A stretch of 64,000 nt of DNA, taken from assembly GCA_000004695.1 (NCBI GenBank), contig CM000153.2, positions 4,352,001 through 4,416,000 of the forward strand, read 5' to 3'. Positions 21,322 through 26,505 of the stretch are shown piece by piece (within the stretch, counting starts at the first letter, position 1; each line of letters starts with the position of its first letter). Both the position numbers and the translations under genes were made by a program. The DNA comes from Dictyostelium discoideum. Its lineage: Eukaryota. The notes beneath the pieces were generated by a model, which saw only the letters and a list, made by a program, of their open reading frames with translations, had not been told where the DNA came from and searched no databases.

Positions 21322-24300
21322 TTAATAATTATTATTATTATTATTATTATTATTATTATTGTTATTATTATTATTATTATTATTATTATTATTATTATTA
21401 TTATTATTATTGTTATAATTATTATTTGTTAAAGTTGGAGGTGATATATAAAGGTCATCTTTCTTTCCAATGATAATATTATGATGATAATGTTTAACTG
21501 GTGGTATTTGTGCTGGTTGTAGTGTTGTTGTTGTTGTTGATGTTGTTGTTGCACTATTATTGCTACTACTATTACAATTGTTGCCACCACCACCACTATT
21601 ACTAAGACCTGATAAAACTGGTGAAGATGGACTATTATTATTATTATTACTACTACTATTACTATTAATTTTTTGACCACCATTTTCAGAAGGTTTTAAA
21701 TCCCAAACTTCTAAAACTGTTCTTAATTCATGTTTTAAACGTAATATTCTACTAAAAACCAAACCAGTGATTGGAACAATTTGTGATAATGATTGACTGA
21801 TTTGTTTAACATCAGAAGTTGTACCAACTTCCATAAGTACATCATTATTGTAATATTTTTCCTCTAAATATTTCATATCTCTTATGTAGATTACATCTTC
21901 AATCAAATAAATTAATTTCAATACAACGCCAAGATGACTACTATTAATAACATTATTATTAATTAGATTCATAATATTTGAAGATGTCAAAGATGGTGAA
22001 GATGTTAAAGTTGGTGGATTATTTGGATGATTTGGATTATTTTGATCAATACTTGATGATAAATTAAATGTACTTGGTGATTGTAGTGGTGGTGGAGTTG
22101 TTGTTGTTGTTGTTGTTGTTATTGGAACCATTGGTATTGTTGAAGAAGCTGATAATTGTACATTTGTTGTTGTAGTTGTTGTATAAGTTGTTGGGACTAT
22201 TGGTAATGATGAAGTTAATGATGGTGAAGGTGTTTTATTATAAATTGATTTTAAATAGGTTATAATTGGTTTCAAAGAATCAGTTTCAATATATTGTTTA
22301 CTTGTACTAGTTGAACTTGTTAAATTAATATCATTTAATAATTCAGGACTTGCTTCAAATATTGATTTATGTTCTTTTAATCTATCTAAAACTAAAATTT
22401 CAGCAGCATGTAAAAATTCATCTAACGAATGATAAATCTTTAATTTCAATGGTAATATTAAATTATTTAAACGTTGTTCCAATTCTAACTTTGTATTTGG
22501 TTTTAAGACTAAATTAATGATTCTAAGGTTTTCACGTACTTTTGATAACGATTTTGGAGGTTGATCAATATAATTCTCTGGTAAAGCAAATTGGTCATAG
22601 CCAATACCACGTATATAACTATCGATTGAGTCTCTAATCAATTGTAAATACCAATTGGTCAACTCCTTCTTCTTTGAACCATCTGATATCTTTGAATTAT
22701 TTGTAATCACGGTTTCAATTGCTAAATCACATTCTGTAATTAAACATTGAATAGTATCTCTTGATGACATACTATACTTTTTAAATACACCATTATCTAA
22801 ATCTCTAATCAATGAAACAATATTAACTAACCATGGTTTAAATTTAATATATTGTTTTTTAATTTCATAAAAATAAAAATCATCACCATTATTATTATTA
22901 TTATTATTATTATTATTATTATTATTATTATTATTATTATTATTATTATTATTATTATTATTATTATTATTATTATTATTATTATTATTATTATTATTTG
23001 TTGTTGTATTATTTGAATTGATTTTAAATAATTGATTATAATCATTTATAATTAATTTATCTTGATTTTCATTACTGTTATTATTGTTATTATTATTATT
23101 ATTTATAATATTAATAATATTAAAATTAGTAAAGAATAAATTATGTGTACCTTTTAATTCTTGAATGAAAAGTTTTTTTAAATAATTTGAAAAATTTAAT
23201 GTATATTGATTTGATAATTGATTAATTGATTCTAAATATGTTGGTAATTCAGCAGAGGTTAATAGTATTGATAGTTTCTTTTTAACAGATTCTAAATCAT
23301 CTAGTGATACGTATTTACCACCTCTAGTGAATTGTAAAGCTTGAGAGATTGAGTCAACGTCATAACCATGTTCTAGTAATCTTTGTTTCACTGTATCCTT
23401 TGTAGCTTGACGTAATTCCGATGCAAATGCATCGAATGGATTTGCAATTAATCTTTCCATTCTTTTACCATCATTAATTGGTATTTGAATATTCAATGCT
23501 TTCAAAGAGACAACACGTGATAATGGTATCTTTATTTGAGTACTCTCATCAGCTTGTAAATAAATGAAGCATCCCAATCCTAGTGGGTCCGCCTCCTTTA
23601 CATATCTACCCAATATAAATGTGCCCTCATCAAATTCATGATGAAATGATTCAATTTGGTGTTGTAATTGTTGCTGTTGTTGTTGTTCTTGGTATTGTTG
23701 AATTTGTTTAGAATTAATACCACTACTTTGTAATGTGAATGGTAATAATTGTGATCTTAAAAATGGTGATGAACATGCTGATGATGATAATGATAATGAT
23801 GATAATGATGGTTGATGACTTAATCCATTACCATTACCATTACCATTACCATTATTATTACTATTTAAACTATTTACATTTTGTTGTTGTTGTTGTTGTT
23901 GTTGTTGTTGTTGTTGTTGTTGTTGTTGTTGTTGTTGTTGTTGTTGTTGTTGTTGTTGTTGTTGTTGTTGTTGAATATTATAACTATTATTATTATTACT
24001 ATTATTATTGTTTTGTAAAACCATTGGAATAATTTGACCATTTGAACCAATTGGTGTCCAACCTTTTGGTAACTTTGCGATAATTATATCACCCTCTGTT
24101 AACTTTTCATTCTCTAATTTCTTTGAGAATTCTCTAACAGTTTTAAAGAGTATATCTTTATTTTCAATTGTTGCCCATTGTTCAATATTTGCAATGAGTG
24201 ATGATCTTGAAATACGTAAATCCCATATTGATACATTATTATCTTTATTATCTTTATTTATATTATTATTGCTACTATTATTACAACTAATATTGGTATT

Positions 24301-26505
24301 ACTACCACTATTACTATCTTTATTTATATTATTGTTGTTATTACTACTATTACTATTATTAATATTATTATTATTTCCACTACTACCGCTATTATTATTA
24401 TTACTACTATTTACACTACTATTACCATTACTACTGCTACTACTATTATTATTATTATTATTATTATTAGTAGTAGTAGTTGGATTGTTATTATTTATAT
24501 TATTTATATTACTACCATCATCATTTAAATAAAAATATTTTTTAGCTCTTCTTTGTATATCTTTTGAAGGAGTCATACCAATTAAAACATTTTCAGGATC
24601 AACTTTATGAGTTGATAAAAATTTATAAAGATCCACTGCCAATCTAAAGATTGGATCACTCTCTTCATCCCATTGATTACTATATAACAATAAGAAATAT
24701 TCCATTTGAGTTTTATATAAATCAAATTGTTGTTTACTTCTAATTCTACCATAAAAAAACATTTCAAAATTTATTATCTCTGAAATATTCTTAAATTTCA
24801 ATGTATTTATATCTGTGAAATTATTATTATTTTGAGGTACCACTGATGACTCTTCTTCATTTTGATCTACAAATTGTCTTTCTGAATTACCATTATTATT
24901 ATTGTTGTTGTTGTTGTTGTTGTTGTTGTTGTTGTTGTTGTTGTTGTTGTTTGAAAATGGTGATAATCTTTCAGATAAATTTATTAAAAATGATTTAATC
25001 TTGTCAACAAATATATTCTTTTGGTTTGGTAAATTTGAAAGACCAATTATTTCCAACTCATACATACAATCAGTATATGATGGACATGTCTCTTCAATAC
25101 TATTATTACTATTATTTATATTACATTTATTGTTGTTATTGTTATTGTTATTATTATTGTTGTTATTATTATTACAATTATTTTCTTTTTCTTTTTCTTT
25201 ATCTTTGTTGAAGACTTCTCTCAAATTTGTGAAACTATTAGTTGGTGATTGATTCTTTATATAATGTGAGTGATCAACAGATTTTGAAAGTAATTTATTA
25301 TGTGGTGATAAACCACTACTATTATTATTATTTACATTATTATTTGCTGTTGTAGTGGTATTTGTAGCATTATCAATACTAATTGATGGTTGTTGTAATA
25401 CTAGTGGTGTTGGTGTTGTTGTTGAAGTTGGTGTTGTTGGTGGTGTTGTTACTATGTTTGGATGATTGGTTGTTGTTGTTGATGTTGATGTTGATGTTGA
25501 TGTTGAATTTGATAATGTTGTTGATGCAGAATATATTGGAGCACCATAACTAATATGAGAAATTGATGCAGATAATTGAATTGTTCTTTGTGGTCTATTT
25601 ATCATTGAAGTTGATGATGATAAATTTGATTCTGGAACTGGTGTTGTATCAAAATTTGAAAATTCACCTTCAAAATTACCAATACTACTACCATTACCAC
25701 TACCACTGCCACTACCAATACTACTGCTGCTGCTATTACTACTACCGCTACTAAAACTATATGAACTATTTAAATTATTCATGATTTTAAGTGTATTTGT
25801 AAAATCACCACTATTTACATTATTACTATTTCTACTCTCTTTAGATTTCTTTATTGTATGTAATATTGATGTTTTTGATGATTCACATTTGTGACTTAAA
25901 TTTCTACAATTTTTATGTGTCTATATTATATAAATATGAGTTGGTTAATAACCATACAACTATTATTTAATTCTATATATATATATATATTTATTTTATA
26001 ATTTAACTCTCTAAATTAAAAAAAAAAAAAAAAAAACACACCTTTTGATTACACTTTGAACAAGAATAACCAGATGGTTTTGCTTTTGATGATATTATAA
26101 TATTTAAACAACCATTGCATTGATGACCACTAGATTCAAAATATTCTTTATTCCAATCGTGTTTAATTATATTACAAAATGATGAAACGTGACTTGATTT
26201 ATTATTACATTCTAAATGGCATGAAAGGTGACATATTTTACAATCTTAAATATATGGAGAGAGAGATTAACAAAAAAAAAAAAAAAAAAAAAAAAAAAAT
26301 ATTTAGAAATTAATATCACACAAACAATCTGATAATAATAAAATAATAATAATAATAATAATAATAATAATAATAATAATAATAATAATAATAATAAAAT
26401 AATAAACTTACAATATGCAATCTTTCCTACATCCCAAATCAATCTGTGACAAATAAAACAAAATGGGGGTGTACCATAATGTTTTTTAATCCAGTCATGC
26501 TCCAT
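21322..26505 (-). CDS. Very large (about 1630 aa) low-complexity protein with an N-terminal C1 (phorbol-ester/DAG-type) zinc-finger domain split by an intron; complement(join(21322..25920,26042..26244,26412..26505))
   Basis: Exon 1 is MEHDWIKKHYGTPPFCFICHRLIWDVGKIAY (H-x12-C-x2-C) with a GTAAGT donor. Exon 2 continues YCKICHLSCHLEC (C-x2-C-x4-H-x2-C), which completes the C1 consensus, and then HVSSFCNIIKHDWNKEYFESSGHQCNGCLN...SKCNQK with a GTGTGT donor. Exon 3 enters in phase 0 at the in-frame TATAG acceptor (25921-25922) and leads into track ORF 21322..25782. The remainder is dominated by poly-N/Q/T/S with a few conserved-looking globular islands. Confidence 0.6.

Follow-up and report, generated by a model that had tools for sequence, protein, structure and literature searches.

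A minus-strand open reading frame (ORF) of 1486 amino acids (aa) in Dictyostelium discoideum raises two questions: whether it is a complete protein, and what kind of protein it belongs to. It lies in a stretch of 64,000 nucleotides (nt) (NCBI GenBank assembly GCA_000004695.1, contig CM000153.2, positions 4,352,001 to 4,416,000 of the forward strand), which we call the window and number from its first base. A sequence-only reading of this DNA, made by a model, had proposed that two upstream exons add a C1 zinc finger of the diacylglycerol (DAG)/phorbol-ester type to the long ORF, and had likened the product to Munc13/CAPS-type effectors. The analysis reported here identifies the protein as a C1-domain protein that carries an undescribed conserved core. 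Its uncharacterised parts are the family to which this core belongs and the non-canonical nature of a pair of C1 domains (coordinates in Table 1).

Scripted splicing of the minus-strand gene (26505..21322) joined three exons into a 1631-aa product with one terminal stop. The two proposed upstream exons were exact in their coordinates and, adding up to 94 + 203 = 297 nt, leave exon 3 in frame. The start codon (ATG) lies at 26505 and is preceded, four codons upstream, by an in-frame stop; the starts of the orthologues likewise lie only a few residues from this His-Asp/Glu-Trp motif. The guanine-cytosine (GC) content of the flanking exons (34% and 26%) stands against only 10-13% in the introns, and exon 1, if left unspliced, enters a poly-Leu stretch and terminates after 97 aa (ORF 26212..26505). 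The mechanical 1486-aa ORF does begin at an internal methionine, as had been claimed: it is Met146 (ATG at 25782), within a non-conserved stretch of a protein that is ~41% low-complexity (676 of 1631 residues). The long ORF is thus N-terminally incomplete, and the upstream exons supply a genuine C1 module. The in-frame TAG that bounds this ORF (25923..25921) is the end of intron 2 and includes the acceptor AG, in agreement with the earlier proposal that the stop is itself part of a 3′ splice site.

Orthologues were found by a masked search in D. purpureum (DICPUDRAFT_86409), P. violaceum (CYY_006029), T. lacteum (DLAC_11360) and A. subglobosum (SAMD00019534_053500), and further searches contributed C. 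fasciculata DFA_02789 and two EukProt models. The first four dictyostelid proteins share the tandem N-terminal C1 pair, the linkers and a five-block core, with 40-56% identity overall, as well as the intron positions where these were checked: both introns occupy identical codon positions, with identical phases, in the D. purpureum (L001) and T. lacteum (L002) genomic loci, and D. purpureum has the same three-exon layout with a single long exon 3 for the protein body. At 1631 aa, the D. discoideum protein exceeds these four orthologues (1150-1351 aa) because its Asn/Gln/Thr tracts have expanded, among them an insertion of 138 aa in one loop of the core. The C1 pair is 75.9% identical to that of D. 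purpureum, a value equal to that of the core blocks (68-76%), and 60-61% identical to those of P. violaceum and A. subglobosum. The long, disordered, Asn/Gln/Ser/Thr-rich linkers that come after the C1 pair are 21-47% identical with many gaps (47% vs D. purpureum). As the C1 pair is conserved to the same degree as the core, the upstream exons are constrained as strongly as the remainder of the protein.

Taken on these sequence comparisons, the gene model and its domain content are very probably correct. The Pfam C1 annotation (PF00130) is precomputed on all four orthologues of the first search, three of which have legible UniRef names of the form 'Phorbol-ester/DAG-type domain...'. Since the same exon structure and C1 annotation are already public for the orthologues, the gene model itself is not new knowledge.

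Several of the public models show the same kind of N-terminal truncation as the mechanical 1486-aa ORF, which omits the only recognisable domain type of the protein. The T. lacteum model DLAC_11360 begins at an internal methionine (MAYYC, L002:3001); an in-frame ATG further upstream (L002:2889) yields MSSDHLHLQQQHDWIKKHFSIPPYCYLCKRLICDIGKMAY and completes the first C1 domain (region L002:2889-3010). As this ATG restores the domain, the deposited model appears to be truncated by 37 residues. The two EukProt models (P0005 and P0006) and C. fasciculata DFA_02789 (P0007) are without the C1 pair, and P0006 and P0007 are also without part of the core N-terminus. The mis-called start of T. lacteum makes it more likely that such C1-less public models are truncated predictions, and by this comparison all three probably are, rather than being real C1-less orthologues. 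At the opposite end, the D. purpureum model (L001:7231-9139) has an extra last exon (~9011..9136, ~30-40 aa) after an intron of ~1.8 kb. The resulting tail is found in no other orthologue, all of which end shortly past IIGKKDD, so this terminal exon is probably spurious.

The C1 zinc-ligand pattern is H-x12-C-x2-C-x13/14-C-x2-C-x4-H-x2-C-x7-C. Judged by profile and spacing, the N-terminus of the D. discoideum protein is formed by two tandem C1 zinc fingers, C1a and C1b, each interrupted by a short intron. All eight zinc ligands are present in both, with deviations from the pattern in the x10 that precedes the last Cys of C1a and in the x13, x15 and x6 of C1b. The profile search that had been named beforehand as the test of this Cys/His spacing gave, for the N-terminal 160 aa, a Pfam C1_1 (PF00130) score of 46.1 bits (E=4.3e-12) in two stretches, against a gathering score of 26.5 bits. 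Alone, C1b lies just below this cut-off (25.7 bits), whereas its counterpart reaches 39.8 bits in D. purpureum and 30.2 bits in P. violaceum. The best matches among Protein Data Bank (PDB) sequences were the C1 domains of PKC delta and PKC theta, with those of RasGRP1 and Munc13-1 also among the top matches. The pattern H-x12-C-x2-C-x13-C-x2-C-x4-H-x2-C given by the sequence-only reading was recovered at aa 3-44. Its single C1 domain split by an intron holds for C1a and intron 1, but there are two such domains, the other split by intron 2; likewise, the second Cys/His cluster that it had mentioned is present but is in fact the complete C1b (aa 60-111). That C1 is the only clear domain type was borne out, as exon 3 has no Pfam family at E<=1.

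Whether these domains could recognise DAG or phorbol esters was assessed from their ligand grooves. Pro11, Gly23 and Gln27 are reportedly the hallmarks of phorbol-responsive C1 domains, and the typical consensus is said to include hydrophobic residues at positions 8, 13, 20, 22 and 24 as well. In an ungapped alignment with PKC delta C1A, C1a keeps Pro11, Phe13, Leu20 and Trp22, but Gly23 is replaced by Asp and Gln27 by Ile. Across the five species compared, residue 27 is consistently Ile, Leu or Met, only P. violaceum among them has Gly23, and T. lacteum has lost Trp22, with a Cys at that position. C1b (…CNGCLNIIISSKAKPSGYSC…) is without Pro11, Trp22, Gly23 and Gln27. Neither domain therefore matches the typical DAG/phorbol-ester-binding consensus (Pro11, Gly23, Gln27 plus hydrophobics), and the earlier label of 'DAG/phorbol-ester type' is doubtful, given Asp23 and Ile27 in C1a and the missing motif in C1b. 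C1 domains that are missing the features for lipid binding form the atypical class, which may mediate contacts between proteins (PMC2427238). As C1a is without Gly23 and Gln27 and C1b without the whole ligand motif, non-canonical behaviour is expected: phorbol-ester or DAG binding by the pair would be weak or absent, as in atypical C1 domains, and canonical DAG binding is, on its residues, improbable.

The rest of the conserved sequence is a core of ~760 residues, made up in the dictyostelid alignment of five blocks (A-E) and a short C-terminal motif. The 'conserved globular islands' of the sequence-only reading thus correspond to real conserved blocks, both in this alignment and among distant relatives. 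An exhaustive HMMER search of 1.84 billion representative sequences with a core profile lacking the C1 pair returned 498 relatives at E<=1e-3, 297 at <=1e-10 and 42 at <=1e-30. The blocks that these relatives have in common lie at profile positions ~80-400, 500-660 and 740-820. Counts of blocks and of C1 modules were drawn from 143 listed relatives outside the orthologue group; block D, matched by 110-142 of them (profile positions 520-640), contains the motif YIDxPP, whose Tyr and second Pro are invariant in 131 sequences. In block E, V-P-x-x-G-L and a Thr are near-invariant, and H..IIGKK of the C-terminal motif is invariant in all six dictyostelid sequences. The window protein has blocks A-E in co-linear order, including YI(D/E)xPP, VPI(T/S)GL and TVLE.

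Every relative with a nameable organism is amoebozoan; among the ten looked up are Acanthamoeba castellanii ACA1_069200, dictyostelid paralogues, and proteins from the transcriptomes of Thecamoeba, Cavostelium and Vermistella. When 6, 34 and 25 members of the family were scanned with Pfam, no family and no recurrent weak match emerged in the core, and profile searches against PDB sequences matched only the C1 part. By these searches, the core is an uncharacterised family without a Pfam model. A TIPE/TNFAIP8 fold was considered and rejected: it came from a single weak PDB profile match, to TIPE3 (E=0.025), the hhalign probability was 6.8%, and PF05527 (TIPE) was found in none of the 34 relatives scanned.

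The modules fused to this core differ among family members. Over 64 relatives outside the orthologue group, we counted ankyrin repeats in 11, MORN repeats in two, and, in one relative each, three copies of the DEP domain (P0153), an RA domain, a RasGEF (P0059) and a tandem C1-like pair (P0137). By a relaxed pattern and Pfam, P0137 is the only one of the 143 listed relatives with C1-like modules. MORN, DEP and C1 domains associate with membranes, while RA and RasGEF are linked to Ras. The core is thus constant, and the C1 pair is one alternative among the terminal modules that it carries. A core paralogue in the dictyostelids themselves has C-terminal ankyrin repeats and no C1 (P0023, T. lacteum DLAC_07822; P0054, H. 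album PPL_05770), so that these genomes contain the family in two forms that differ in their terminal modules.

P0137 is a distant relative whose C1-like modules are likewise N-terminal (aa 42-108 and 114-166). Its gene (L003:2001-5276 and L004) is intronless and lies on a 132-kb contig of Joint Genome Institute (JGI) metagenome 3300056626 with 58% GC, where the spacers between genes are very short and the neighbouring genes encode an Arf-family GTPase and an Ank+RGS protein. It could come from a giant virus or from a protist with a compact genome.

For a view of the core fold, AlphaFold2 was applied to the core of the compact orthologue P0005. With a 131-sequence alignment of relatives, the 765-aa model reached a mean predicted local distance difference test (pLDDT) of 82.5 and a predicted template modelling (TM) score of 0.73; a run with a 6-sequence alignment (pLDDT 45.6) was not used for the fold search. 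The modelled core is mostly helical, with one five-stranded β-domain that is probably, on this model, a Tudor/SH3-like barrel. Gly709, Arg871 and Glu891 of the barrel are kept family-wide, and aromatic residues occur across the family at aa 869 (77%), 872 (52%), 886 (70%) and 720 (18%), Trp720 being confined to the dictyostelids. As the barrel aromatics are only partly conserved, a cage that reads methyl marks is conjectural. The expanded loop of the D. discoideum protein lies between strands 1 and 2 of this domain and is 14 residues long in P0005; so large a low-complexity loop is apparently compatible with a folded domain in this case. A Foldseek search of the modelled core against the PDB gave nothing significant (best E=0.26, TM<0.1), and no Munc13, CAPS or CATCHR structure was among the matches listed. 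Within the limits of the model, the helical domains have no specific analogue, and the core no global analogue, among solved structures.

Our best overall explanation, which we consider moderately probable, is a three-exon tandem-C1 gene whose product combines a non-canonical C1 pair with an uncharacterised core and uses the pair for targeting. The conserved core would be the working part, acting as a protein-interaction scaffold, with the place and time of its action set by the variable terminal modules. For the present orthologue group, targeting would fall to the C1 pair, which would probably attach the protein to a membrane surface or to a partner protein, independently of canonical DAG/phorbol recognition. 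As drawn from sequence, this targeting-scaffold mechanism is put forward tentatively. More speculative still is the possibility that the core is an undescribed signalling module, made of new helical domains and the probable Tudor-like barrel and repeatedly joined to membrane- or Ras-linked modules. If so, the D. discoideum protein would be a genetically tractable entry to a new class of membrane-signal effectors, with a C1 pair responsive not to canonical DAG but to another lipid or to a partner.

Several points weigh against this explanation. The splicing of this strain is deduced from the sequence and from comparative data, and neither an exact lookup of the 1631-aa and 1486-aa proteins nor word-indexed homology searches, whose matches were all from other dictyostelids, found a D. 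discoideum protein model for the gene. Exact lookups of two small ORFs nearby likewise had no match, probably because repeat lengths differ between strains. The residues that C1a keeps are compatible with some lipid affinity. The modelled sequence is the P0005 core, which is 47% identical to the window protein, and the Tudor-like matches were assigned to the β-domain because all modelled strands lie there. Finally, the association drawn from domain fusions is circumstantial, most of these fusions being with ankyrin repeats, which are uninformative on membranes.

Among the alternatives, the one that survives best, although we find it doubtful, is that the C1 pair does no targeting and instead packs on the core as an intramolecular structural or autoinhibitory module, as in Vav1, Raf and KSR. 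The atypical sequence features would fit such a role, as would a pair conserved as strongly as the core, and Vav1 offers the precedent of an atypical C1 that is structural within a multidomain unit (PMC2427238). However, ~270-340 poorly conserved low-complexity residues lie between the pair and the first core block, unlike the contiguous DH-PH-C1 of Vav1. Moreover, most family members have no C1 at all, and the equivalent positions in other members hold MORN, DEP or RA, which are typical localisation or interaction modules.

A typical DAG/phorbol-ester sensor, namely a Munc13/CAPS-type effector coupling DAG production to vesicle priming or tethering, is less likely and, in our view, hard to sustain. 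Such an effector would account for the C1_1 score above threshold, for the PKC and Munc13 C1 structures among the PDB sequence matches, for the four groove residues retained by C1a, and for a C-terminal part that is largely helical, as MUN/CATCHR domains are; Sec10 and Exo70 even appear in the Foldseek list, with non-significant E values of 1.3-4.8. Against it stand the replaced Gly23 and Gln27 of C1a, the loss of the whole motif in C1b, and the Pfam results, in which neither this protein nor ~70 relatives had MUN, MHD or C2. The likeness to Munc13/CAPS suggested by the sequence-only reading is therefore not upheld by Pfam, either for exon 3 or for the relatives.

It is very unlikely that the protein is chiefly a methyl-Lys/Arg reader, for example nuclear or in RNA granules, that acts through the Tudor-like barrel and has its C1 domains as generic zinc fingers. 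The semi-conserved aromatics at aa 869, 872 and 886 would suit this role, but conservation of a cage of four aromatic residues could not be demonstrated (Trp720 is dictyostelid-only, and the aromatic frequency elsewhere in the cage is 52-77%), Gly, Arg and Glu are what the barrel conserves best, and the fused MORN, DEP, RA, RasGEF and C1 modules point to cytoplasmic membrane signalling rather than to chromatin. Most improbable of all is that the upstream exons are normally unused and that transcription starts inside or after intron 2, giving the 1486-aa ORF or a similar C1-less isoform: that ORF is intact and the public models P0005, P0006 and C. fasciculata DFA_02789 are without the C1 region, but exons 1-2 are 76% identical to D. 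purpureum, both intron positions are conserved in three species, Met146 falls where there is no conservation, and the short T. lacteum model is a mis-called start.

To a specialist, the protein as it stands would be unsurprising: it is a well-conserved 'hypothetical protein', and the C1 annotation is already attached to its orthologues. Few C1-domain proteins have been described in Dictyostelium, and a conserved tandem-C1 protein with non-canonical-looking domains thus bears on the amoebal use of C1 domains. For two Dictyostelium species, one paper mentions nothing beyond a primitive C1-plus-kinase PKC (PMC12055004). Literature searches on Dictyostelium C1-domain proteins and on the locus tags of six members (the four orthologues of the first search, the H. 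album paralogue and the Acanthamoeba relative) found no paper on the core family. The larger point is that the core comes from a sizeable family without a described function or fold, for which D. discoideum is the obvious knockout organism.

The window around the gene has ~15-30% GC and abounds in poly-Asn and poly-Gln coding tracts. By the exact match of its padA to the protein of a wild isolate, the window was assigned to D. discoideum and to a strain other than AX4. Several plus-strand ORFs within 23739..25252 are the antisense of Asn/Gln/Ser codon repeats and not genes. Besides padA and the ORFs with Pfam matches (Table 1), four further long ORFs (12169..13770 and 14711..17185 on the minus strand, 34579..35703 on the plus strand and 36115..37608 on the minus strand) matched nothing in Pfam at E<=1e-4.

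Table 1 The tandem-C1 gene, the domains of its product and neighbouring features, in window positions.
Feature	Position	Strand	Details
Exon 1	26412..26505	-	94 nt; aa 1-31 and base 1 of codon 32; first half of C1a
Intron 1	26245..26411	-	167 nt; GTAAGT...TTTAAG; phase 1, within the Tyr codon of IAY/YC; 10% GC
Exon 2	26042..26244	-	203 nt; second half of C1a and most of C1b; kept in orthologues
Intron 2	25921..26041	-	121 nt; GTGTGT...ATATAG; phase 0, CNQK/THKNC; 13% GC
Exon 3	21322..25920	-	4599 nt including stop; aa 100-1631
C1a	26174..26499	-	aa 3-55, spans intron 1; H-x12-C-x2-C-x13-C-x2-C-x4-H-x2-C-x10-C; Pfam C1_1 34.2 bits alone
C1b	25885..26161	-	aa 60-111, spans intron 2; H-x13-C-x2-C-x15-C-x2-C-x4-H-x2-C-x6-C; Pfam C1_1 25.7 bits alone, E=1e-5
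Core block A	24529..24870	-	aa 450-563; helical in model; motif GMTPSKDIQRRAKKYFY; 71% to D. purpureum; matched by ~40-50 of 143 listed relatives
β-domain (probable Tudor/SH3-like barrel)	23503..24093	-	strand 1 GDIIIAKL (aa 709-716); strands 2-5 in aa 866-905
β-domain loop insertion	23644..24057	-	aa 721-858; includes a run of 31 Gln
Core block C	23146..23643	-	aa 859-1024; rest of β-domain and helices, including ERLIANPFDAFASELR
Core block D	22210..22863	-	aa 1119-1336; helical, most widely conserved; KKKELTNWYLQLI ... PENYIDQPPKSLSKVRENLRI; pLDDT above 90
Core block E	21685..21936	-	aa 1428-1511; helical; YIRDMKYLEEKYY ... IVPITGLVFSRILRLKHELRTVLEVW; matched by most relatives
C-terminal motif	21445..21483	-	HNIIIGKKDDLYI; then a poly-Asn tail of 29 residues and the stop
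Antisense ORF	24194..24532	+	112 aa, poly-Leu
Antisense ORF	24902..25252	+	poly-Leu
Antisense ORF	23739..24032	+	poly-Val
Protein kinase ORF	3028..4263	+	Pfam
FAD-binding monooxygenase-like ORF	7667..8749	+	Pfam
Kelch-repeat and SAM-domain ORF	31620..33776	-	Pfam
padA (Prestalk A differentiation protein A, NmrA-like)	41013..41915	+	exact match to KAM9942060.1 (D. discoideum isolate); same 90% cluster as AX4 Q54LW0
Two-RRM ORF	53482..55497	+	Pfam

Compared with known systems, the predicted barrel differs from those of the Tudor/chromo/PWWP 'Royal family' in that no Pfam Tudor, chromo or PWWP match is found here, the aromatic cage lacks demonstrable conservation, and the barrel, set within a large helical protein, has an insertion in one of its loops. 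With Munc13 and CAPS, the protein shares a C1 domain in a large, mostly helical protein, but it has no MUN/MHD, C2 or PH domain by Pfam, and its modelled core has no structural match to Munc13 or other CATCHR proteins.

The conventional and novel PKCs, whose delta and theta C1A domains are the best PDB matches, also have two consecutive C1 domains (C1A-C1B) near the N-terminus. The present protein differs in having neither a kinase domain nor a C2 by Pfam, with no Pkinase match in exon 3 where an AGC kinase domain would follow the C1 pair, and in the groove substitutions described above.

Closest in character are the atypical C1 domains of Vav1, Raf-1, KSR and atypical PKC, which act in protein-protein or intramolecular contacts rather than in DAG sensing (PMC2427238). 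Both they and the present pair have the full set of His/Cys ligands and are missing consensus residues of the ligand groove. The pair described here differs in that C1a keeps Pro11 and Trp22, in the spacing to the last Cys (x10 in C1a and x6 in C1b vs x7), and in its setting: rather than lying beside a catalytic domain, the two domains stand in tandem at the extreme N-terminus, on a long disordered tether.

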